From positions 1,600,001-1,664,000 of the forward strand of contig CBDCJV010000002.1 in assembly GCA_965217895.1 (NCBI GenBank): a stretch of 64,000 nucleotides of DNA, read 5' to 3'. The notes below the pieces were generated by a model, which was not told the DNA's origin, did not search any database, and saw only the letters and a program-made list of their open reading frames with translations. Positions 10,943 to 23,669 of the stretch are shown here, in pieces. Source of the stretch: Waterburya sp. (GTDB taxonomy: Bacteria; Cyanobacteriota; Cyanobacteriia; Cyanobacteriales; Xenococcaceae). The position numbers and the translations under genes are program-made. Position 1 is the stretch's first letter; every line of letters begins with the position of its first letter.

Positions 10943-13900
10943 TCAGGGAATTAGCTTATTTGTTAAAGCTACGGCACTGCTGATAATTTTTGCCAAAGCT
11001 GAGGGGGCTTCTAGAGGGAGATTGTGACCACCAGAAACTACAACTTTGGTAGCATTGGGCATAGCTTCGTGCTGTTGGTTTAAGTCTTCTATGCGGTTAA
11101 AGCTACTTTTGTCACCGTAAACCAGCGTAATCGGTACTTTGATTTTTTTCAACAGCTTTAGATAGCGCGATCGCCCGATCCCATTTAAGCTAATACCAGC
11201 CCTAGTCCGCAATAAGGGTTCCCAACGCCATCTTACCCCGCCTTCACAAGGTTCGGTAATTCTTTCGGCTAAGATCATTGCCAAAGAATGAGTAATAGCT
11301 GGAGTGGCTTTTCTCAAACGTTTGGCTGCTGCTTCAACATTAGGAAACACTGGATGTTCTGGAGGTGCAGCCATAGAGTCTAGCTGATTAGTTAAGCTAG
11401 CTGTAGGATCATCATCTTCGTTGGCTGTAGGTAATATTGTTTCAACTAGCACAATATTTTTGATCCTTTGGGGTCTAATAGTGGCAAATATAGCTCCTAA
11501 GACCGAACCTAGAGAATGCCCCACCAAAATAAAGGCTCTACCTGCTAAATTTTCGACAACAGCGTCAATATCTCCCAAAAAGTCAATCAGATTATAAGAT
11601 CCGCCCTTGCCAACGCGATCGCTTCTGCCATGTCCTCGTAAATCTGGGGCAATTACCCGATAGCCTTTTTGCGCCAAGCGAATTGCTACTTCTGACCAAG
11701 CTGCACCCTGTTCTAAAATACCGTGTAGGCAAAGAACCAAAGGTCCTTCTTCTGGCCCCCAGGTACAGAGACATATTTTTAAGCCTCTAATAGTGATCAG
11801 AGTTTCCTCCATCAATAAATCTACTACGTCAGCATTCGCTTCTTGAGGCAGTTCGTATTTGAGTTGCTTGGCAAGTTGCCCTGAGTATGTACCTAACATA
11901 GAAGGCAATTTTATTTCTCGCCAAGTTTCGGCTAGTTCGGCATCAATCTTTTGGTGATTGAGAAAATTAGGATCGCCCAAAGACATTGCGGTATCGTTAA
12001 CTCCATCGGTCAGGCGATCGCCTTGGTAAGGAGTTAATACAGCCTCATGATAGGGAACTTCTAAGAAATTACAAATCTGGGTCATCACTGCTTGAGGCTT
12101 GCTTACCAAGTCTTCGTAATAGACTAAATGGTATCGTTCAGGGTCAATATCTTGGGCAAAGTCGAGGATATTTTGATTACTGTCGCGCCAAATTAATTCC
12201 GCAAGCTGATAGGCATCCCCATCGACCGCTCCCACCAGCTTATCCATCCGCATTCGTGCAAAGGATTCTATAACTGCGTAGGGATGACGGACTAAATGGA
12301 TATACTTGGCATTGTTAAAGATAGTTTCTGCTTTGGCTAAAGTCTCTCGGTTGCTGGCGTAGGTAGGAGATTTATCAATCAAAAGGCGATCGCCTGCTAG
12401 CTGCTGAAGCATCTGATAAGCCTCTGCTACAGAAAGATTTTCTTGGGTTAATTCTGCGACTAATGCTTGGCTTTCGGCTGCACTAATACCTTTAAGTGCC
12501 ATAAAGGCGCGTTTTAGTCCTTCCCCTAGTTGAGAAACTCCCAATTGCGCTTCTCTCTCTGCCATGTTTTCAAAAGGAAGTAAATGCAGTTCTGGAGGAG
12601 AAAATAATCCAGAATGTCCTGCTAACATGACTCTTAACAAAGTTGAACCAGAACGAGGACTAGAGAGGATAAAGGCCGCAGGGGGTAATTTAGCTTTTAA
12701 GAGATTTAATTTTGGTTGCGAACGAACTTCACTAGTTGGCTTAACTTCTTCCTCATGGGTTTTAGTAAATTCCCCAGCTAAATATTCAGCTAGATCGACA
12801 ATTTGGGGGCGTTCATAAAATTCTCTAGGATAGAGAATCAACCGTAAGTCGGTTTTTAACTGGTTGATAGCTTCCATCACCATCAATGAATCCATGCCAA
12901 TATCCAGCAGACTTGAGTTAACAGAAAGATCATCTGCCTCAATCTGAAGTATTTCGGCGAGAGCCTTTTGCAAATATTGAGTTAAATATTCTGGTCGTAG
13001 ATCGGCTTTGGTTGCCAACAATTCTGGGAAAATCAGGTTATCTGCTGGCTGATTATTATCCTTGGACTGACTAACTAATTGCGAAAAATAATTGGACTCA
13101 TTTAAATGAGCGAACTTTTGACTTAACTGCTGCCAATCTGCGCTGATAACACCCACCTGAGTTAACTCAGTAGTTAATAACTCTTCTAAAGCTGCTAATC
13201 CCGCCTGAGGATTAATCAAATCCAAGCCTTTAATCTCAACTCCTTGCTTAACCGCCATTCCGCTTTCTCCCCAAGCACCCCAATTGATGCTCAAAGCTGG
13301 TAAATTCTGACTTTGACGATAACGAGCGATCGCATCTAAGCCTGCGTTTGCCACAGTATAATTACCTTGTCCTGGTGAACCAATCAAAGAAGCAACAGAA
13401 GAGAATAAAACCAAGAAATCTAGCTCAATATCTTTGGTACAGCGATGTAGATTCCAAGCACCAGTAACTTTGGGCGCAATTACCCTATCAAATCTTGCCC
13501 AAGTTTGTCCTTGTAACAAGCCATCATCTAATATTCCCGCAGCGTGAATTACACCCTTTATTGACGACTGAGAAAAAATGTCTTTTAGTGCCTTATAGTC
13601 TGTAATATCAACCTGGACAACATTAACCTTAACCCCCTGTTTCTCTAATTCACTTATTTCCTGTTGAGCAAATTCTGATGGTTTGCTTCTACCGATTAGT
13701 AATAGATTTTTCGCTCCTTTATCTACTAGCCACTGAGCAACCTGTAATCCTAATGAACCCAAACCGCCTGTAATTAAATAAGCAGCGTCATCTTTAATTT
13801 CTAAAGTTTGCGTCGGTTTAATATTTGCTGTTTTACTTAGACGGGGTACATAAATATTTTCTTGTCGTAAAGCCAAACGATCTTCTTTATTCTTATTAGT

Positions 13901-16900
13901 AATAACCGCAAGCAAACTATCAACTTCATGAGCTTCAGGTTCGATAGCCAAGTCAACAATTCCACCCCAATATTCAGGATGTTCTATAGCGATCGCATTA
14001 GCCAATCCCCAAAGACAGCTTGATGCCAAGGCGTTACTTTGGATATTATTAGCAATATTTTGATTTCCTCTAGTAGCTAACCAAATAGGTGCAATAATCG
14101 AGTTTTGACTCAAAGCCTGAAGTAAATTTAAAATATTAGTACAGTGCTGCTGTTGATAATTATTAATTTCCTTAATAGTTGACAACTCAGGATTATCTAA
14201 GCCTGTCAAATAAATAATTCCTGCTAGTTCTTGATACTGTGTAAATAGCTGAGTAAGATTATCAGAATCGAGATGGCGATCGCTAATTAAAATACTATTT
14301 TGTTTTAACTGTGCTGCTGTTTTTGCACCTAAACCATTTGTATCTGCAAAAATTAACCAAGGTTGATTGCTTTCTTGAGCAATAACTTTGGTATTTAAAC
14401 TATTTTCATAAACTTGCCAATCTATCTGATAAAAATCAGGCTGCTTAGACTTAGACTTATCTCTAGATGGTAAAAATACCTCGACTTTACTATTAGCAGA
14501 TGTTGCTTTTTTCGTTAACCAATAGCTCTGTCTTTGGAAAGGATAAGTAGGTAAGCTAACTTTTTGTCTGCTATTTCCCCGCTCAAAACTGTGCCAGTCT
14601 ATCTCTATTCCTTTGACATATAAAGAACCTAAACTTTGTAGTATTTGCTGCCAATCTTCTTTGCGTGGACGTAAACTAGGCAACCAAAAAGTTTCAGTTT
14701 GACCCTGAGTTGATACTGAACGCCCCATTCCCAATAAGATAGGTTTTGAGCCAATTTCTAAAAAGATATTACATTCTTGCTGCAATATTTCCATTCCCTC
14801 AGCAAACCTTACTGGTGCGAGTATATGATCTATCCAGTATTGCGCCGTAGAAATTTCCGCTGTTGCTGCTTTGCCTGTAATATTAGAAATTAATTTAGTG
14901 TGAGGCAGATGATATTCAATCGACTCAGCAACCTTAGCAAAATTTTCTAAGATAGGATTCATTAAGGGCGAATGAAAAGCATGAGAAACTTTTAATTGCT
15001 TGCTCTTGATCCCTTGGGTATTAAATTTACTAATTATTGAGCGTATTGCGGTTTCTTCACCAGAAATAACAACGCTTTGATGGCTATTAATAGCTGCGAT
15101 CGCAACTTGCTCTCGAAAGGATTTGATTACTGATTTAACCGTAGTCTCATCAGCAAAAACTGCATACATCTCCCCGACTTGGGATAAGCTTTGCATTAAT
15201 TTACCCCGCGTAGCCAACAGCTTGAGTCCATCAGCCAAACTAAATACTCCAGCAACCGTAGCAGCAACGTATTCACCCACGCTATGTCCAAGTAAGGCTG
15301 ATGGTTTAATTCTCCAGTCCATCCACATCTGCGTCAAGGCGTATTCTATGGCAAAAATTGCTGGCTGAGTATAAACAGTTTCGTTAAGTAAGGATGAGGG
15401 ATGTTCGGGATATAAGACTTCAAGTAGAGGTTTTTCTAGATAGGAATCAAGAATTTCGGCACATCGATTGAGGGCTTTTTTGAATACTGGTTGGGTCTGA
15501 TATAGCTGATAACCCATGTTCACATATTGCGAACCTTGTCCTGTAAATAGAAAAGCTACCTGATTTTGATTGCTATTGCTGGTTTCACCGTAAGCAATAC
15601 CTTTAAATTGTCCTGCGGTAAAGTTAGCTAATTTATCCTGAAGCTGAGTTTTAGATTTGACAGCGATCGCCAAACGATGATTAAAATGGCTACGTCCATT
15701 ATTAGCAGTATGGCAAATATCAGCCAAAGCTATATCAGGGTTTTCTACTAGATAATCTTTATAACTTAAAACTAGATCGTTTAAAGCAGATTTGCTTTTT
15801 GCTGAAAGGGTTAATAGATGTAAAGTACGTTCAGATAATATTTCTTTCTCTCTATTCCCCACGTCCTCTAAGTCATTATCTTTTTTACTGACATCAAGTA
15901 CATCTCCTACAATTAGATGGGCATTTGTGCCACCAAAGCCAAAAGAGCTTACTCCAGCATATTTTGTGTCGCCCGAAGTTATCCACGGCTGTAACTGCTG
16001 AGGAATAGTCATGCCTGTATCAGCTAAATCTATTAAAGGATTTAGCTGCTTAAAGTGGAGATTAGGGGGAATAGCATGATGTTGCAGACAAAGTACTGTC
16101 TTAATCAAGCTAGCAATTCCTGCTGCTGATTCTAAATGTCCAATATTGGTTTTGAGTGAACCAAGATAACAAGATCGATCCTTTTCTTGACCTAAGACAG
16201 CCTTGAGAGAATTAACCTCAATCGGATCGCCCAAAGATGTCCCTGTACCGTGAGACTCCACATAGCTAATCTCGGCAGGGGAAACATTAGCATTAGCCAA
16301 AGCCTGACGAATTACCGCCTGTTGAGATAGTCCGTTAGGGGCGGTCAAACCATTGCTACGTCCATCCTGGTTAATAGCCGAACCCTTGATAACTGCTAAA
16401 ATGCGATCGCCATCTCGTTGAGCATCTGCTAACCGCTTAAGAATAACTACGCCACAGCCTTCACCACGCACATAGCCATCCGCGTCCGCATCAAAGGTTT
16501 TACAGCGTCCATCTTCTGCCATCATGCCAGCGACCGTAAAGGTTTGAGTCAGTTCAGGAGATAGCATCAAGTTAACTCCGCCTGCGATCGCCAGATTGCA
16601 TTCTCCTGTTTTTAAGCTTTGACTAGCAAGATGGAGCGCTACTAGAGACGAAGAACAAGCCGTATCTACCGCCATCGAAGGCCCTTTTAGGTCAAACAGA
16701 TAGGAAAGACGGTTTGCAGCAATGCTATGGGCATTTCCTGTGCCTACATAGGCATCAACATCTAAGTCGTAATGAAAGCGTAACTGAGAATAATCACTGC
16801 TGCTAATGCCGATAAATACGCCCGTATTGCTACCTGCTAAATTCTTATTGGCGACTCCTGCATCTTCTAAAGCTGACCAGCTAACCTCTAGTAAGAGTCT

Positions 16901-19237
16901 TTGTTGTGGATCGATACTTTGTGCCTCACGGGGAGTAATGCCAAAAAACTGCGGGTCAAACTGGTCTACATTCTCAATAAAGCCACCCCAGCTTGAATCT
17001 GACCAGCGATTGCTTTTGGCGATCGCGTCTTTGCCATCTCGCAACATTTGCCAGAATTGAGCGGGATTATTCGCCCCAGGAAAACGACAGCCAATACCTA
17101 TAATAGCTATTTCAGATTGGGTATTAGATATTCCGTAGGGTCGAACGGCTGTTTGCCCAGTTAAAATCGGGGTTGAAATATTTTCAGTTTGATTATTTGT
17201 TAGATAAACAGCAAGTTCAGCAATATTGGGATAGTCGTAAACAATAGTGGGGGACAGCTTTATATCCAGCCAGTCTTCCAACTCTGCCGATAGGCTAACT
17301 GCTGCAAGTGAACTTAAACCAGAACTGGCAAAGGGTTCATAAATGTCTATCTTTGATGCAGCTATGCCTAATTGCTGTGCCAGATTTTCAATTAACCAAT
17401 TTTGAATTTGATCCTGTTTTCGATCAAACCCCGTAGGGGCGAACGGCTGTTCGCCCCTACCATTATTTGGTTGTGATAAACGACCGTCTTCTGCCAGCGA
17501 TTTATATTCCCCAACAACATCCAAACTGCCATCTAAATATCGAGCTTTACAAGCATGACGCTGTATCTTTCCGCTAGAAGTTTTAGGGATACCGCCTGTT
17601 TTGAGCAATATGATAGCGTGGATTTGTAGTTCATGATTTTGAGCTACTGCTTGCAGAATTGCCTTAGTAACCTCATCTACATCAAGCTTACGCAGATAAG
17701 TCCGTTTAATTTCTGCGGTGACAACTAGCTTTTCTTCTCCTGCAACTTCCACAGCAAAAGCGGCTACATTACCTGCTCGAATTGCTTCATGGGCAAGATC
17801 TAAAGTTAGTTCAATGTCTTGAGGATAATAATTGCGTCCACGAATAATAATTAAATCTTTCAAACGCCCTGTAACAAATAGCTCTCCTGCTTGTAAAAAG
17901 CCTAAATCTCCTGTACGTAACCATCCTGATTCTTGAGTGTCGGCTAATACTGCATTAAAGCTAGTAGCTGTAAGTTCATCTAGACCCCAGTAGCCTTGGG
18001 CTATACTATCGCTTTTTGCCCAAATTTCTCCAATTTCGACCTCTGAACATTTTGTTAGAGTCTGGGGATTAACAATAACCAGTCTTTGTCCTGGAAGATT
18101 GCGCCCACTACTAACCAAAGTAGTTTTATTTTCTGCATTGCTAGTAGCAACGGCGAGGTTTTCTTCAAGTTTTTGAGTGTCAAAGCTGGCGGTAACTGGC
18201 TTTTGATGCTTATCTCCTGCTGTAATCAGGAGAGTAGATTCTGCCATGCCATAGCTAGGATAAAAAGCTGCCGTGCGAAAACCACAGTCGCGAAAGTATT
18301 CACTAAAACGCTCAATAGTTTCGGCTCTGACTGGCTCTGCACCTGAAAAAGCTAGTTCCCAGCAACTTAAATCTAGGTTGGCTTTTTGTTCGGCAGTAAT
18401 GCGATCGACACAAAGATCGTAGGCAAAATTAGGCCCTCCATTAGTTACCCCTCTATAACGAGAAATTGCCTGTAACCAACGGTAAGGACGCTGTAAAAAG
18501 GTTACAGGAGCCATTAAATACATCGATAACCCAACATACATTGGTTGGACAATACAGCCAATTAAACCCAAGTCATGGTATGGAGGCAGCCAAGAAACGG
18601 CAGTGTGTTTCCGTTCATTTTGGAAACAATGATTGATTGTGGCGGAGTTAGCCATTAAATTGCCATGACTGACCATCACGCCCTTAGGTCTACCTGTTGA
18701 ACCACTGGTATATTGCAAAAAAGCTAAATTTTTTGGGGTGATCTCTGGATGCTGCCAAGCTGAAGATAGATTAAGTTCAAAAGTATCAGTGGCGATAAAT
18801 CTTACTTTTGAACTAGCATTGTGATTAGCAAACTTGCTAGCAACTTGCTCCCGAATCAATTTGGTCGTTAAAGCAAAACTTGCCTCCGCATCGGTAACGA
18901 TCGCTATTAAACGTTCAAGCGAACGATTGGCACGGGGTGGATAAACGGGAACAGCTACCACTCCCGCGTATAAGCAACCCAAGAAAGCCGTAATAAAATC
19001 TAATCCTGGCTGGTATAGCAACAATGCTCTTTGCCCCTGAGCATTATGGCTTTGCAACACAGAAGCGATCGCCTTAGCTTTTTCATTCAATTGTTGATAT
19101 GTGAGACTATCTATTTCAGTCTCACCATCGGCTAAAAAAGTAAACGCCCTTTTATTAGGCTGAATACTCGCTTGTTCTTGTAATCGTTGTACCAGGGTTA
19201 TTTGCTTGCTCAATCGTTTCCTCTCTTTGCCACCCAC
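10943..19237 (-). CDS. ols: Olefin synthase (1-alkene-forming type I PKS): FAAL-ACP-KS-AT-KR-ACP-sulfotransferase-thioesterase
   Basis: QYTSGSTGRPKG (FAAL); GLSSL and GMDSL (ACPs); DTACSSS/HGTGT/NIGH (KS); GHSVG and HAFH (malonyl AT); GGLGSLG and LDD (KR); SSPRSGSTLLR (PAPS binding); GHSLG (TE). The GTG start is uncertain. Confidence 0.93.
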   Translation of the reverse strand: MGGKERKRLSKQITLVQRLQEQASIQPNKRAFTFLADGETEIDSLTYQQLNEKAKAIASVLQSHNAQGQRALLLYQPGLDFITAFLGCLYAGVVAVPVYPPRANRSLERLIAIVTDAEASFALTTKLIREQVASKFANHNASSKVRFIATDTFELNLSSAWQHPEITPKNLAFLQYTSGSTGRPKGVMVSHGNLMANSATINHCFQNERKHTAVSWLPPYHDLGLIGCIVQPMYVGLSMYLMAPVTFLQRPYRWLQAISRYRGVTNGGPNFAYDLCVDRITAEQKANLDLSCWELAFSGAEPVRAETIERFSEYFRDCGFRTAAFYPSYGMAESTLLITAGDKHQKPVTASFDTQKLEENLAVATSNAENKTTLVSSGRNLPGQRLVIVNPQTLTKCSEVEIGEIWAKSDSIAQGYWGLDELTATSFNAVLADTQESGWLRTGDLGFLQAGELFVTGRLKDLIIIRGRNYYPQDIELTLDLAHEAIRAGNVAAFAVEVAGEEKLVVTAEIKRTYLRKLDVDEVTKAILQAVAQNHELQIHAIILLKTGGIPKTSSGKIQRHACKARYLDGSLDVVGEYKSLAEDGRLSQPNNGRGEQPFAPTGFDRKQDQIQNWLIENLAQQLGIAASKIDIYEPFASSGLSSLAAVSLSAELEDWLDIKLSPTIVYDYPNIAELAVYLTNNQTENISTPILTGQTAVRPYGISNTQSEIAIIGIGCRFPGANNPAQFWQMLRDGKDAIAKSNRWSDSSWGGFIENVDQFDPQFFGITPREAQSIDPQQRLLLEVSWSALEDAGVANKNLAGSNTGVFIGISSSDYSQLRFHYDLDVDAYVGTGNAHSIAANRLSYLFDLKGPSMAVDTACSSSLVALHLASQSLKTGECNLAIAGGVNLMLSPELTQTFTVAGMMAEDGRCKTFDADADGYVRGEGCGVVILKRLADAQRDGDRILAVIKGSAINQDGRSNGLTAPNGLSQQAVIRQALANANVSPAEISYVESHGTGTSLGDPIEVNSLKAVLGQEKDRSCYLGSLKTNIGHLESAAGIASLIKTVLCLQHHAIPPNLHFKQLNPLIDLADTGMTIPQQLQPWITSGDTKYAGVSSFGFGGTNAHLIVGDVLDVSKKDNDLEDVGNREKEILSERTLHLLTLSAKSKSALNDLVLSYKDYLVENPDIALADICHTANNGRSHFNHRLAIAVKSKTQLQDKLANFTAGQFKGIAYGETSNSNQNQVAFLFTGQGSQYVNMGYQLYQTQPVFKKALNRCAEILDSYLEKPLLEVLYPEHPSSLLNETVYTQPAIFAIEYALTQMWMDWRIKPSALLGHSVGEYVAATVAGVFSLADGLKLLATRGKLMQSLSQVGEMYAVFADETTVKSVIKSFREQVAIAAINSHQSVVISGEETAIRSIISKFNTQGIKSKQLKVSHAFHSPLMNPILENFAKVAESIEYHLPHTKLISNITGKAATAEISTAQYWIDHILAPVRFAEGMEILQQECNIFLEIGSKPILLGMGRSVSTQGQTETFWLPSLRPRKEDWQQILQSLGSLYVKGIEIDWHSFERGNSRQKVSLPTYPFQRQSYWLTKKATSANSKVEVFLPSRDKSKSKQPDFYQIDWQVYENSLNTKVIAQESNQPWLIFADTNGLGAKTAAQLKQNSILISDRHLDSDNLTQLFTQYQELAGIIYLTGLDNPELSTIKEINNYQQQHCTNILNLLQALSQNSIIAPIWLATRGNQNIANNIQSNALASSCLWGLANAIAIEHPEYWGGIVDLAIEPEAHEVDSLLAVITNKNKEDRLALRQENIYVPRLSKTANIKPTQTLEIKDDAAYLITGGLGSLGLQVAQWLVDKGAKNLLLIGRSKPSEFAQQEISELEKQGVKVNVVQVDITDYKALKDIFSQSSIKGVIHAAGILDDGLLQGQTWARFDRVIAPKVTGAWNLHRCTKDIELDFLVLFSSVASLIGSPGQGNYTVANAGLDAIARYRQSQNLPALSINWGAWGESGMAVKQGVEIKGLDLINPQAGLAALEELLTTELTQVGVISADWQQLSQKFAHLNESNYFSQLVSQSKDNNQPADNLIFPELLATKADLRPEYLTQYLQKALAEILQIEADDLSVNSSLLDIGMDSLMVMEAINQLKTDLRLILYPREFYERPQIVDLAEYLAGEFTKTHEEEVKPTSEVRSQPKLNLLKAKLPPAAFILSSPRSGSTLLRVMLAGHSGLFSPPELHLLPFENMAEREAQLGVSQLGEGLKRAFMALKGISAAESQALVAELTQENLSVAEAYQMLQQLAGDRLLIDKSPTYASNRETLAKAETIFNNAKYIHLVRHPYAVIESFARMRMDKLVGAVDGDAYQLAELIWRDSNQNILDFAQDIDPERYHLVYYEDLVSKPQAVMTQICNFLEVPYHEAVLTPYQGDRLTDGVNDTAMSLGDPNFLNHQKIDAELAETWREIKLPSMLGTYSGQLAKQLKYELPQEANADVVDLLMEETLITIRGLKICLCTWGPEEGPLVLCLHGILEQGAAWSEVAIRLAQKGYRVIAPDLRGHGRSDRVGKGGSYNLIDFLGDIDAVVENLAGRAFILVGHSLGSVLGAIFATIRPQRIKNIVLVETILPTANEDDDPTASLTNQLDSMAAPPEHPVFPNVEAAAKRLRKATPAITHSLAMILAERITEPCEGGVRWRWEPLLRTRAGISLNGIGRSRYLKLLKKIKVPITLVYGDKSSFNRIEDLNQQHEAMPNATKVVVSGGHNLPLEAPSALAKIISSAVALTNKLIP
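17135..17162. repeat. Degenerate GTAG REP-like palindrome inside ols
   Basis: GTAGGGTCGAAC-GGCT-GTTTGCCCAGTT. Confidence 0.75.
17433..17460. repeat. Perfect GTAG REP-like palindrome inside ols
   Basis: GTAGGGGCGAAC-GGCT-GTTCGCCCCTAC, with perfect 12-bp arms. Confidence 0.9.
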
Positions 19238-19372: not shown

Positions 19373-19546
19373 TCACGCCAAGACGCAAAGGCGCAGAGAA
19401 AGAACGCAGAAGATTTGAAAAATATAGAGAATAGCGATCGCTTTATTATGTAGAGAGGAGAAAAGCGATCGCGTTTTTGAAGGTAAGGAGCTATTTAGTT
19501 TTTATCTCTCGCACCAGACGCAGAGGCGCAAAGAAAGACACAGAAC
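19373..19546 (+). repeat. Two ~40-bp direct repeats built of 9-mer units (ACGCAAAGG/GCGCAGAGA)
   Basis: 19373-19412 TCACGCCAAGACGCAAAGGCGCAGAGAAAGAACGCAGAAG and 19507-19546 TCTCGCACCAGACGCAGAGGCGCAAAGAAAGACACAGAAC. Confidence 0.8.
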
Positions 19547-19551
19547 AGAGA

Positions 19552-19890
19552 TTAAAGGTTATTTGCTATGCGAGTAATACCGTTTTTGATTAAGTCGGTG
19601 TTGAAGTTGATTAATAAACCCAAACGTTTGTTAGTCAGACGGAGATAAGTTAATAGTTGCTTCTTATGAACTGGGGCGATATGTTCTACAGACTTTAACT
19701 CAACAATTACCAGATTTTCTACAATAAAATCTGCCCTAAAACCTTCCCCCAAGTGCATTCCTTCATACACCACAGGAATAGGCTTTTGCCGTTCAAACCT
19801 CAACCCTCGCTTTTGCAACTCATAAGCCATTACCGCTTCATACACCGACTCCAACAAACCTGCACCCAATCTTGTATGGATAGCGATCGC
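19552..19890 (-). pseudogene. GxxExxY protein (PD-(D/E)XK nuclease-like), N-terminally truncated
   Basis: AIAIHTRLGAGLLESVYE, RADFIVE..VIVELKS, QLLTYL and GLLINFN. An in-frame TAA lies just upstream of the HIP1 site at 19883-19890. Confidence 0.85.
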
Positions 19891-19961
19891 TAATTAAAGA
19901 AAGGTGATTGAATCTTCCCTTTCAACTGACCTTGGGCAATTACCCAATTACCATATGTGCC

Positions 19962-20021
19962 TTTTAACGCTTGAGTTAATCGACTCTGCAAGGCGATGTC
20001 GGCTTGGATGAATTGTTAGAT
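19962..20021 (-). other. Integron attC site (60 bp, classic 59-base-element type)
   Basis: Minus strand ATCTAAC-AATTCATCCAAGCCGACATCGCCTTGCAGAGTCGATTAACTCAAGC-GTTAAAA. It has R''/R' boxes and an L''/L' dyad, and closely resembles the aadA/Xanthomonas-type attC. Confidence 0.9.
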
Positions 20022-20332
20022 GCACTCGACGCGCTGCCAGAACGCCAAGTCTTAATCGCAGCAATGACACGCGCCCCGTGCGATGAAGAAAGATCCCGAT
20101 CTTTAAATATCGACTGGCTAGCTATGAGGATCGGCGCACTGTTCTGAATCTGCTGAGCCAGCCAAGTTAGGTAGCTTCTACCAGTCTGACCATACTCCCG
20201 TATCTCTTCAGAGCTAAGTTCGATTAGGAAACTGTAGTCAACCATGCTAAGACTGCAATTTGTATCAAGGAGCAGTGAATCGGCATCGCGAAGCAGAAAC
20301 CATGTATGTGGTTCATGGTCAAGAACATTCAT
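19976..20332 (-). CDS. Hypothetical protein, integron cassette 2
   Basis: 118-aa ORF with AGGAG 7 nt upstream, visibly higher GC than the host. Its C-terminus SNNSSKPTSP is the translated attC. Confidence 0.75.
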   Translation of the reverse strand: MNVLDHEPHTWFLLRDADSLLLDTNCSLSMVDYSFLIELSSEEIREYGQTGRSYLTWLAQQIQNSAPILIASQSIFKDRDLSSSHGARVIAAIKTWRSGSASSASNNSSKPTSPCRVD

Positions 20333-20447
20333 TACTGCGCTCCTAATTATTCCACAATAGTTCCATTATCTATTATATGGTTTTGTCAGTCACAATCAGC
20401 ACCAACGGATAACTTTCAGGCTACTATCTTAACCCAGAAACGAAGCC

Positions 20448-20519
20448 AGCTAACGAACAAACTCACCAGCGGTAAGGAAGCGTAGCGGAATTGCCGTCTA
20501 GTGCAGTGTCTTGTTAGCC
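20448..20519 (-). other. Integron attC site (72 bp)
   Basis: Minus strand GGCTAAC-AAGACACTGCACTAGACGGCAATTCCGCTACGCTTCCTTACCGCTGGTGAGTTTGTTC-GTTAGCT. The methyltransferase stop TAA lies inside R''. Confidence 0.9.
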
Positions 20520-21146
20520 TGTTTTTCTGCACTCAACCCCAAGACAATTTTCCCATCTGTCTTTGTCTTCTACTGTTTGAAAAAATGGATCAGATGAATC
20601 TCCGAAATAAGCTCTTCTTATTTCAATATAACCCGCATCTTCAAGTTCTCGTGCAATTGACTTGAAATCCCACATCCAAAGGTGCTGCGAATTCCCAAGC
20701 CATGTGCTAAGAATACCTTTTAGCCCCCTCGCTCGTCTTTCATGACCAAGGCAGGTCTCTCCCATAAACTCCAAAGCTGCGCTATTTGAGGGATTATCCT
20801 TATATTTTCTGATTGAATATTCCAAATCTGGCAACACGAAGCGAAACACTCCACTAGCCCTTAAAATTCTTTTTGTTTTACGTAACGCTATTCTAAAATC
20901 ATTAAGAGAAAGATGCTCAAGAACGTGAGAACAATAAACTCCTTCACATGAATCTGGCACTATTGGTAAGCCTTTGACAATATCACCGTACTCCACATTG
21001 TTTGGGAATCGAGATTCATTTTTCGTATACAGACCACCTATGAGTGGTAATCTTTCGAAACGTAGTGCAGGAGAGGCATCGAAATTTCGCCACTGGTTAG
21101 GTGCAGACCATCCACACCCATATTGAACATACTTACTCTCTCTCAT
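20514..21146 (-). CDS. SAM-dependent methyltransferase (type 11-like), integron cassette 1
   Basis: YVQYGCG....WRNFD, YGDIVKGLP, VYCSHVLEHL, R.VLPDL and H.WMWD. Confidence 0.8.
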   Translation of the reverse strand: MRESKYVQYGCGWSAPNQWRNFDASPALRFERLPLIGGLYTKNESRFPNNVEYGDIVKGLPIVPDSCEGVYCSHVLEHLSLNDFRIALRKTKRILRASGVFRFVLPDLEYSIRKYKDNPSNSAALEFMGETCLGHERRARGLKGILSTWLGNSQHLWMWDFKSIARELEDAGYIEIRRAYFGDSSDPFFQTVEDKDRWENCLGVECRKTG

Positions 21147-21705
21147 CCTGTTGGTTTCCTTGTTTGAAGGCTAGTTATTTATTCGGAAACTTTCTGAATA
21201 TCAACCCTATGTGGGACAAGAAACAGGAACTTGCCATATATTTACCCTGTACATGGTGATATCGTGAAACTTTCGGTATATTCGTCAATGATATGCCGAC
21301 TTTTTCTGGATGTCATTTGTTTTTAATCGTGTGGGTAGAGGCGTAAGAAGTCCTCTCAATCCTTGAAAATTTTAATTAGAAGGATTGAAGAGATCGTAAA
21401 CGAAGCAGAAATATCAAGAGTCTTTAATTAGAGATTAGCGAGATAACGATGTTTTTTCAATTTTTATTTTATATTCTCTCCTGTATCATAAAGAGATCGC
21501 CCCAAAGCCCATAGCCAATTCAAGTAAAGTAGCTGTGCAGCAATTTCTTTAATTTTTTCTTTTATGGCTGGGGTCAAATCATCGAGAGTCATGGCGACAT
21601 TTCAAGGGAACTAGATTAATTTTAACGACTCACATAAACATTTTTTGTAACAGACTTTTTGTCTTTTAGTATTGTTTTCTATTTGCTCGATAGCTAGATT
21701 CTTTA

Positions 21706-21860
21706 GTAAACGGTAAAGTCAAATAATGAACTACTCACACTAAATCAAAGATTTAGAATGAGTTTCTAGCTTCGCTGGGTGCTGCCTTACCTTGGTCTTT
21801 CGACCCCGATCTGGTCTTACGCTCCCTTCACTAGCAGAGACGGCTGTTCCATCCGTCTTT
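21706..21860 (-). ncRNA. Predicted TnpB omegaRNA (scaffold overlapping the tnpB 3' end plus flanking guide)
   Basis: TnpB omegaRNAs are known to derive from the element right end. The 3' segment GGAACAGCCGTCTCTGCTAG...GCTAGAAACTC...GAGTAGTTCAT is self-complementary. The 5' boundary is a guess. Confidence 0.55.
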
Positions 21861-22966
21861 ATTATCCTGATGCCTTCTGCTCTGATATTTCGACTTGCAG
21901 CTTCATCCCGATCATGAGTTTTACCGCATGAAGTATTCAAACAAGTCCATTCTCTAATACTCAGATCCATCTTTGGAGTTTGAGTTAGACAATCAGGACA
22001 GATATGAGATGAGGGAAACCATCTGTCTATCTCAACCAGGCGTTTATCTTCCCGCTCTAATTTATAGTCTAGAAAGTTTACGAACATTCCCCACCCAACA
22101 TCAGATATAGCTTTGGCTAATTTGTGGTTACGCACCATGCCTTTCACATTGATATTTTCTATCACAATGACTTTGCTTTCGTTTGTCAATTTTCTACTCA
22201 ACTTGTGTAAGAAATCTTGACGGGCATTACTTATGCGTGCATGAACCTTAGCTACTAATTTTTTGGCTTTTTGTCTGGTTTTACTACCCTTCTGCTTTCT
22301 AGATAATTTTTGTTGTTTACGAGCCAGATTTTTCTCATGCTTTTTAAAGTGTCTAGGATTAGCATACTTGCTAGTCTTAGTCCCATCATGAGCTATACAA
22401 AAATCCTTGATTCCTAGATCTAAGCCAATTATCTTGTCACCGTTGCCAGATACAAAGCAAGCTTCTAGTTCATAGAGAATCGAAGCAAAATATCGATCTG
22501 AACTATCTTTGGTTATAGTTACAGTCTTGATTGTGCCAACATAGCGACGGTCAAATACTGCTTTAACTAATCCAATTTTAGGTAACTTAATCCAGCCTCC
22601 ATCAATTTTTACTGACTGAGGGAAACCAACAGACTGCTTACCATGCTTAGATTTGTATCTAGGAAATCTAGCTCGTTTTTCAAAGAAATTGATAAAAGCA
22701 CGAGACAGATTGAGTGATGTCTGTTGCAGTGATTGAGAATAAACTTCTGTTCTCAACCATTCATGTTCTTTTTTTAGATTAGGCAGCAAAGCATTTAGTC
22801 CTGCACGAGATAGTCCTTTGCCTGTCTCTTTGTAGGTTTCAATACTTTTATTGAGAGCAAAATTCCACCACCAACGAGAACAACCCATAGCACCTGCTAA
22901 TTGCTGTTTTTGCTCGTCAGTCGGATAAATTCGTACTTTCTGTGCTTGTCTAATCATGTCTACCAT
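21740..22966 (-). CDS. tnpB: RNA-guided endonuclease TnpB
   Basis: N-terminal RIYPT..Q HTH, RuvC GLDLG / IVIEN / HDRD, and a CPDC...C.NTSC zinc finger. Confidence 0.95.
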   Translation of the reverse strand: MVDMIRQAQKVRIYPTDEQKQQLAGAMGCSRWWWNFALNKSIETYKETGKGLSRAGLNALLPNLKKEHEWLRTEVYSQSLQQTSLNLSRAFINFFEKRARFPRYKSKHGKQSVGFPQSVKIDGGWIKLPKIGLVKAVFDRRYVGTIKTVTITKDSSDRYFASILYELEACFVSGNGDKIIGLDLGIKDFCIAHDGTKTSKYANPRHFKKHEKNLARKQQKLSRKQKGSKTRQKAKKLVAKVHARISNARQDFLHKLSRKLTNESKVIVIENINVKGMVRNHKLAKAISDVGWGMFVNFLDYKLEREDKRLVEIDRWFPSSHICPDCLTQTPKMDLSIREWTCLNTSCGKTHDRDEAASRNIRAEGIRIIKTDGTAVSASEGSVRPDRGRKTKVRQHPAKLETHSKSLI

Positions 22967-23009
22967 TATATAATAAAGTGATAGAACTGCGCTAGATAAT
23001 TAATTCTGC

Positions 23010-23054
23010 GACGCACTCTGGTCTTGGCGGTTTCCGCCGAGGAAGAAGTGCGTC
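23010..23054. repeat. Small dispersed hairpin repeat
   Basis: GACGCACT...AGTGCGTC outer arms with an inner GGCGG-TTT-CCGCC hairpin; a GC-rich island in AT-rich DNA. Confidence 0.65.
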
Positions 23055-23183
23055 AAGAAGCTTAGTGTCTAGCTCGATTCATCTCCTCCTAAATTCCCAT
23101 CCTTTAAACTTAGAAGGAGAATTCTCTCACAATCCGTTAAAATCAATAAAAATTTTAGCTATTGTTTTGAATTTATCGACATA

Positions 23184-23669
23184 ATGAAGCAGAAATACCA
23201 AGACTTTGTAGTCAGAGATTGGCAGAAAAGCGATCGCACCGCAGCAGCAGAAGTAATTAGAACGGTATTAGAGGAATATGGTTTGCCTTGGCAGCCACAA
23301 TTGGCAGACCTCGATGTGATTGAAGTTGAGTCGGCTTATTTAGAAACTGGAGGGGAATTTTGGGTAGTTGAGAAAAATTCGACTATAGTAGGCACGGCAG
23401 CATATCAACCCATAAGTAGAGGACAAAAGGCTGTTGAAATTCGCAAAATGTACTTATTACCAAAGGTTAGAGGCAAGGGATTGGGTAAATATTTATTGCG
23501 GGAGTTAGAAAAAGCGATCGCTATTAAAGATTATCAAGAAATTTGGCTGGAAACTGCATCTATATTAAAAGAGGCAGTAATATTATACGAACGCAGTGGC
23601 TATCAACCTGTCAATGATGTGGAAACAGAAAGATGTGATTTAGCTTATCTTAAAAAAATACATCCTTAG
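23184..23669 (+). CDS. GNAT family N-acetyltransferase
   Basis: EIRKMYLLPKVRGKGLG, LET...LKEA..LYE..GY. Confidence 0.9.
   Translation: MKQKYQDFVVRDWQKSDRTAAAEVIRTVLEEYGLPWQPQLADLDVIEVESAYLETGGEFWVVEKNSTIVGTAAYQPISRGQKAVEIRKMYLLPKVRGKGLGKYLLRELEKAIAIKDYQEIWLETASILKEAVILYERSGYQPVNDVETERCDLAYLKKIHP

Follow-up and report, generated by a model that had tools for sequence, protein, structure and literature searches.

Probable remnant of a native chromosomal integron that lost its integrase gene by deletion in Waterburya sp.

Integrons and integrase-less attC clusters (CALINs) are already known in cyanobacteria (PMC4889954, PMC8618304). The supplement of PMC4889954 lists CALINs in Acaryochloris, Cyanothece, Stanieria and Synechococcus, together with an In0 and a complete integron in Pleurocapsa. 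A model of cyanobacterial attC sites also exists (PMC8352920, PMC9176274), and loss of intI through deletion is known in Xanthomonas (10.1101/2025.06.18.660453). Literature searches that did not extend to subscription journals or to the supplements of preprints turned up neither an account of a cyanobacterial attI nor one of its palindrome array.

The window, a stretch of 64,000 nucleotides from the Waterburya genome designated G000, contains a locus that is very probably the dead remnant of a complete native chromosomal integron belonging to a cyanobacterial IntI clade and frozen after the deletion of intI. Its features are listed in Table 1, and its layout is the usual divergent one, with the cassettes leading away from attI on one side and intI on the other. 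An earlier sequence-only reading of this DNA recognised a pair of cassettes whose attCs belong to different families, in operational terms a CALIN. This is borne out, as at least two attCs are clustered with no profile-detected intI nearby. Its statement that no integrase lies nearby is correct for an intact gene, none of which stands beside the array, but an intI stump and attI adjoin the array and are located 25-220 bp upstream of ORF1.

Table 1. Features of the integron remnant and its flanks (positions in the window)
Feature	Position	Strand	Description
GxxExxY (PD-(D/E)XK) gene	19552..19882	-	5' end short by ~16 codons; flank, outside the array
HIP1 octamer, left junction	19883..19890		Absent here in 10 intact GxxExxY genes
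Short stub past last crossover	19891..19961	-	Start of a lost cassette or old distal flank
attC B	19962..20021	-	60 bp; aadA/Xanthomonadales-like; decayed
Cassette 2	19968..20453	-	486 bp; possibly cyanobacterial-type leader fused to foreign ORF and attC
ORF2	19976..20332	-	118 aa, uncharacterised family; tail reads through attC B
attC A	20448..20519	-	72 bp; folds; family of the attCs of cyanobacterial methyltransferase cassettes
Cassette 1	20454..21174	-	721 bp; first in array
ORF1	20514..21146	-	210 aa, class I SAM-dependent methyltransferase; PF08241 above cut-off
attI simple site	21169..21186	-	Damaged; R box ACTAGCC instead of GTTAGCC; L box minus 3 bp
25-bp palindrome array	21178..21314		In the attI-intI spacer; matrix matches at 21178, 21258, 21290; spacings 80, 32
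intI stump	21310..21366	+	Deletion junction, last ~16 codons and stop; reads ...NRVGRGVRSPLNP and stop
Decayed extra GNAT copy	21399..21450	+	First 50 bp of the gene; 79% to 23183-23234
tnpB element, IS200/IS605-family	21726..23136	-	ORF 21740-22966; Pfam OrfB_IS605
Host GNAT acetyltransferase	23184..23669	+	Followed by glucokinase; probable integron anchor in lineage

Both attC palindromes lie where the sequence-only reading had placed them, each ending a minus-strand ORF and carrying the cores RYYYAAC...GTTRRR. Also as it described, the stop codon of ORF1 falls within R'' of attC A, ORF2 runs through attC B as SNNSSKPT, and the cores GTTAGCT and GTTAGAT agree at 6 of 7 positions. A heuristic attC scan found attC A, missed attC B and returned false matches, and covariance models were used instead. 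These are two custom models, R1 and R2, distinct from IntegronFinder attc_4 and from the published Cyanobacteria-type attC-taxa model (cut-off 61 bits, PMC8352920), for which R2 serves as a stand-in. R1 was built from 16 attCs outside the window and G000, 10 from plasmids and 6 from genus relatives. It gave 6 matches in all, attC A with 38.6 bits (E 1e-7), attC B with 29.4 bits (E 3e-5) and a third-best of 11.7 bits, and is partly circular for attC B because its 10 plasmid sites were found by BLAST with the region. R2, built from 28 cyanobacterial matches that include one site of attC A's family, gave 47.6 bits for attC A and just 13.9 bits (E 0.72) for attC B; its training alignment, which was fitted to structure, covaries, with 50 doubly changed cells against 20.7 after shuffling. 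Both sites thus score far above background and are real attCs. A search of Rfam returned nothing relevant.

That the palindromes arose by chance, or are terminators behind vertically inherited genes, would be in keeping with the terminator-like score of attC A and with weak folding z-scores, no strand of either attC being clearly better than its shuffles (z -0.9 to -1.8, an uninformative range). Against it stand the covariance-model matches and the distribution of the genes: neither ORF has a match in 40 relatives, and among 400 other genomes of the phylum, 5 carry ORF1 and 1 carries ORF2. The conservation of cassette 1 together with its attC in G184, a cyanobacterium of another family, refutes this explanation, to which we give practically no credence.

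Folding of the bottom strands, a check proposed with the original reading, succeeds for attC A and fails for attC B. In attC A, which folds canonically, the R-box pair probability is about 0.92, and 6 of 7 pairs in R and 6 of 7 in L are Watson-Crick. In attC B the values are 0.25 for the R box and 0 for the L box, so that no recombinogenic hairpin is predicted; the controls reach 0.96-0.98 for the R box (aadA1, qacF) and 0.62-1.0 for the L box (aadA1). The assignment of attC B to the aadA type is therefore upheld in sequence, with 46/60 identical positions to the aadA1 attC and also 46/60 to that of qacF, but not in structure, since the canonical fold is lost. The attCs of aadA and qacF are placed in a Xanthomonadales-like group by PMC8352920, and attC B fits there. 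The sole site here that still looks usable is attC A, which is identical to the attC of G158 at 58/72 positions and is found as the same site in G184.

ORF1 has 4736 relatives, the best of them 82% identical. The counterpart of cassette 1 in G184 shows 78% DNA identity, attC included; it starts with GTTAGCC and is preceded by an attI-like site. In G158, the first cassette of an intact integron encodes a methyltransferase 31% identical to ORF1. The GC3 of ORF1 is host-like (0.31 vs 0.32). Cassette 1 evidently circulates among cyanobacterial integrons, and with its host-like GC3 this speaks against the foreign origin formerly proposed for it. Homologues flanked by attC, which that proposal had called for, are provided by the ORF1 cassette of G184 but not by distant homologues of either ORF. 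Of 80 metagenome loci with ORF1 homologues, 0 are cassettes, as are 0 of 20 when filters are switched off and 0 of 4 loci among cyanobacterial homologues of 47-54% identity; attC is absent at 3 of 3 loci of ORF2 homologues. In G184 the methyltransferase cassette is broken by a foreign insertion (locus L124). ORF1 has no PADLOC match.

The leader of cassette 2, GTTAGCTGGCT(T/C)C, recurs at 6 other loci. In the three leader-sharing cyanobacterial cassettes whose own attC was read, R'' is CCAGCTAAC (3/3), and cassette 2 differs. Because its leader is of cyanobacterial type and its R'' is unlike that of the leader-sharing cassettes, cassette 2 may be a fusion of such a leader with a foreign ORF and attC. 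ORF2 has 264 relatives, mostly in Pseudomonadota and at best about 50% identical, and its GC3 of 0.46 lies in the top 0.9% of the genome. Members of this family measure roughly 98-107 aa, against 118 aa in ORF2, and R'' of attC B holds a stop codon out of the ORF2 frame; from these two features the read-through may be a late frameshift. The Atlas clusters of ORF2 are annotated as hypothetical, no match was obtained in Pfam, NCBIfam or PADLOC, and a word-indexed search recovered ORF2 alone. Its predicted model is confident (pLDDT 93.6), Foldseek gives nothing at E <= 0.001 and the best VIA Z is 4.2; weak matches to a predicted model are not evidence of a new fold. ORF2 and attC B are the sole parts of the array that look foreign in their sequence.

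Upstream of cassette 1 lies the attI/promoter module (21171-21316), which shares 83% identity with the DNA that immediately precedes the intact intI of G048, a genus relative. Alignment with 17 other loci gives the consensus CCGCATAATAAATAG/TT. Homology between loci stops at ATAG/TT, which is also the boundary of cassette 1, and beyond it each locus continues with cassette DNA of its own, which identifies this point as attI. On a profile built solely from relatives the window site reaches 111 bits, so that the attI expected of a complete integron is present, with a mutated core. A promoter scan for Pc gave 3 promoter-like sites, against 3.3 by chance. In relatives such as L097 and L068, the L box of attI overlaps a conserved TATAAT/CATAAT, preceded in L097 by TTGACA 16 bp upstream; attI may thus contain a built-in cassette promoter in relatives, broken in the window. 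In G041 (L075), the attI crossover is interrupted by a foreign insertion.

On the module's opposite side, 21318-21369 is 83% identical to the last codons and stop of the intact G048 intI. Between the module and this stump the gene lacks about 960 bp, and residues 320-336 alone remain. As a protein match the stump is weak (tblastn E 1.1), and the case for it is accordingly made by DNA identity (E 1.5e-8) and position. The intact intI contains a 6-bp direct repeat, its copies 961 bp apart, that brackets the segment missing in the window; the deletion junction in the window fits this repeat at just 5 of 6 positions and has 2 extra bases. A single 3833-bp Logan contig, probably from the same sample, covers 19415-23247 with zero differences, and the deletion is hence real in the DNA and no assembly gap. 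With the array still on its own attI beside the stump of a cyanobacterial-clade intI, the derivation of both cassettes from a foreign pool does not hold.

The genome-wide search for IntI suggested with the first interpretation confirms that G000 has no intact intI: TIGR02249 gives 7 matches over the genome (99.9% complete), none of them in the window and none above the cut-off. The IntI of G048 scores 472 bits on the same profile (cut-off 265); it shows the catalytic motifs as well as an ALERKY stretch, which we take to be the IntI-specific insertion. Judged from relatives such as G048, the lost enzyme was a true IntI. Of the three fates offered for the integrase, loss is retained, while an IntI acting in trans from this genome and an enzyme other than IntI are both dismissed. 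An array that is still live, served in trans by another recombinase of the cell or by an incoming IntI, would agree with the canonical fold retained by attC A and with the capacity of CALINs for mobilisation in trans (10.1101/2025.06.18.660453). We regard this as very unlikely, however, since G000 has no intact IntI, since the damage to the attI core and attC B leaves neither cassette flanked by two good sites, and since no joints were seen in two runs, in which contigs drop rare variants.

TIGR02249 matches above the cut-off occur in 4 of 39 genus genomes and in 22 of 401 phylum genomes. In a tree restricted to the 29 rows in which over 250 residues are aligned, 14 cyanobacterial IntIs, those of G048 and G015 included, form a clade (98/94 support) that excludes IntI1; long branches meet outside this clade. 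Seven TIGR02249-positive proteins of a distant class (L110-L116, L119) form a separate clade, and both the attI module and attC are absent from their fetched flanks. The attI module is matched in 21 of the 39 genus genomes, and attCs, mostly 84-90 bp long, are found in 26. The 34 loci examined, a biased set chosen by similarity, with some short contigs and with a profile trained on part of the set, include 31 with the module, 2 of which have an intact intI beside it. At the remaining module loci intI is frameshifted, truncated or affected by end-retaining deletions like that in the window. Deletions of this kind fuse residues 1-38 to 319-336 in G044, and residues 6-26 to 247-336 in G049.

The spacer between intI and attI carries 2-5 palindromes of 25 bp in 11 of 13 clade loci examined, with the consensus GATATACGGAAAnnTTCTGnnTAAn. 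These arrays span 130-180 bp, 22 of 29 palindrome spacings are 39-41 bp, and in all 11 palindrome-bearing loci the last palindrome is followed by GTT 4-6 bp further on. The weight matrix rests on 41 sites from loci with intact intI, and L109, whose 5' end is disrupted, was excluded from the count. As each half of a palindrome resembles an IntI box, we infer that the palindromes are accessory IntI-binding sites.

The genome of the window contains four attI modules and zero intact intI. Of the 8 attCs found in it, 5 lie behind an attI module and 2 stand alone; the remaining one adjoins an intI stump. The two strong solitary sites (contig C2, 283746-283831 and 3262053-3262138) have no attI module nearby and may be insertions at secondary sites. 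A second remnant (L045, C2:1074.4-1078.3 kb) has an intact attI core and two cassettes, and continues with another ORF, an intI 3' stump with a GNAT 5' piece, and a third cassette. We assume that its cassettes are glyoxalase-like and that the ORF is IS630-like. The whole looks like two stacked integron units, and the order in G020 resembles it, with the same third gene. At L082 (C2:3673-3675 kb), an attI module with one cassette and attC directly follows what is presumably a clpB-like gene; then come a decayed duplicate of the 3' end of that gene and a pair that we take to be BrnT/BrnA-like. At L057 (C2:1692.6 kb, ~29 kb beyond the window end), an attI module without intI remains precedes a presumed BrnT/BrnA-like toxin-antitoxin pair, and no attC was called.

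At the left end of the array, the GxxExxY gene matches TIGR04256 positions 17-115 of 116, and its homology with the copies of 10 of 10 relatives ends at 19881. The piece beyond attC B had been thought the stub of a third cassette, a description it does not support: it contains no ORF of at least 60 aa and no attC, and runs for ~70 bp to the HIP1 junction. Elsewhere this stub has just short HIP1-anchored matches; one to the DNA upstream of GNAT in G019 and G023 was rejected as short and mapping elsewhere in G000. The gap in HIP1 octamers pointed out at the outset is real, but weak as evidence of foreign origin (0 in 1285 bp vs 1.4 expected); HIP1 gaps at least as long hold 11.6% of the chromosome, and the absence is not significant as proof of such an origin. 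Further left lies a FAAL/type I PKS gene (10943-19237, 2764 aa), which we take to be ols. At the threshold of the search, 37 of 39 genus genomes have a match to it, and its upstream neighbours differ in close relatives.

Insertion of the cassettes upstream of ols, as first described, is contradicted by the three closest relatives, G019, G020 and G023, in which ols and the GNAT-glucokinase locus are far apart; the adjacency to ols is a rearrangement. These genomes also bear on the idea that an integrase in trans, or one passing through, put foreign cassettes into a secondary site of the attG type that lay upstream of ols. Such a route is described (10.1101/2022.09.11.507474), ORF2 and attC B have a proteobacterial look, and G000 has the attCs at 283.7 kb and 3262 kb without a module nearby. 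Yet the entry point here is not away from attI but is the attI adjoining the intI stump, cassette 1 is one circulating in cyanobacteria, and ols is unlinked to the locus in those relatives, which makes this account highly improbable.

To the right of the stump, the combination of stump and GNAT piece recurs at C2:1077.4 kb of G000 and in G020. The tnpB element is a separate insertion, as G023 joins 21725 straight to 23137. In G020 the true GNAT gene is directly preceded by pieces of intI and by a gene that resembles a cassette. In a second strain of the sample (run X1), a loose contig end is found at window position 23183, the start of the true GNAT gene, and its 30 visible letters resemble an intI-stop flank.

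The main rival to the preferred reading shares its anatomy and differs in history. Modules of attI and intI with their cassettes would be acquired repeatedly from other cyanobacteria, natural transformation anchored by host genes or HIP1 being one conceivable route; the segment would have arrived ready-made, and the integron would never have worked here. This is a substantial possibility, although we do not think it the likely course. The modules of G000 are no more alike within genomes (77% identity, 14 pairs) than between them (74%, 364 pairs), and a recent duplication of the module within G000 is unsupported. Flanks mostly differ, 9 of 34 loci sharing one with another locus; this is no proof of mobility, because the genomes are heavily rearranged. 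Modules are flanked by duplicated ends of host genes (GNAT 5' here, clpB 3' at 3673 kb), and the intI stop has a HIP1 octamer beginning no more than 45 bp away at 11 of 28 clade loci, which include kin and are hence not independent, against 6.1% of long ORFs in G000. Long residence is indicated, on the other hand, by what is left of intI upstream of the same GNAT gene in G020 and by the loose contig end at 23183. The simplest course of events has the integron anchored at GNAT in this lineage.

For this native integron the following course is proposed. On the evidence of the sequence, an IntI placed the cassettes at attI, the methyltransferase cassette last, after which a deletion removed ~960 bp of intI but spared the upstream module and the last codons. 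The deletion may have run between the 6-bp direct repeats, and may have been tolerated or favoured since an unregulated integrase would be costly, as argued in PMC3108266. The array is frozen, as its attI core and attC B have decayed. The palindromes would provide additional boxes for IntI to bind; these would organise the synapse at attI and may repress the promoter of intI. The distal end of the array was probably removed by a rearrangement at a HIP1 site that brought ols alongside. HIP1 may have a role at such junctions; its function is unresolved according to PMC5861425.

The locus is ordinary in kind, a dead integron, and the part that may be undescribed is the attI design of its clade. 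Tentatively, and with doubt as to the whole being right together, we suggest that cyanobacteria possess an integron class of their own, with an undescribed attI made of phased palindromes of IntI-type boxes with a period of ~40 bp, the last of which would supply the L box. Because the array overlaps the start of intI, IntI could keep its own gene repressed with no LexA box of the E. coli type. The attI-intI module would be acquired repeatedly, often with its end at HIP1, and would then shed intI and leave orphan attI landing pads. If so, many cyanobacterial CALINs without an intI pseudogene would be remnants of this type, detectable by the attI profile. The present locus is a readable case of the birth of a small CALIN through a deletion that leaves too little of the gene for the usual pseudogene test, and the profile makes the question of CALIN origin countable in Cyanobacteriota. 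It also gives a sequence definition of a cyanobacterial attI; intact IntI-attI pairs exist in relatives, and such a pair might become a native integration tool.

Among the described systems, the CALINs of PMC4889954 resemble this locus in having two attCs and no detectable intI, and loss of intI is route iii of that paper; the difference is that the origin of the window locus can be read. Since the pseudogene test of PMC4889954 demands more than 50% of the profile, which a stump of 17 residues fails, the locus would be counted there with the 95% that have no intI pseudogene close by. In Xanthomonas, repeated lineage-specific inactivation of intI, large deletions included, has likewise frozen arrays (10.1101/2025.06.18.660453). 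The Xanthomonas intI, however, sits at one locus (ilvD), whereas the cyanobacterial modules number 1-4 per genome, mostly in different contexts, and the attI design of the Xanthomonas integron differs from that of this clade. The SALIN/attG insertions (10.1101/2022.09.11.507474) are also small integrase-less arrays, and such insertions may account for both solitary attCs of G000, but the array in the window lies at attI instead. The attCs of the genus, in their length, are in line with the Cyanobacteria-type attC (51 sites, model length 87; PMC8352920), and the window sites, at 72 and 60 bp, are shorter. Class 1 attI1, like the attI of the clade, has a simple site of L and R boxes with crossover at GTT, and upstream of it accessory repeats (PMC4792948), these being two direct repeats within ~65 bp in attI1 and 2-5 palindromes over 130-180 bp in the clade. 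The class 1 locus L060 is unmatched by the clade attI profile and the locus in the window lacks the marks of a class 1 mobile integron, while IntI1 is 51% identical to the IntI of the clade and is placed outside it.
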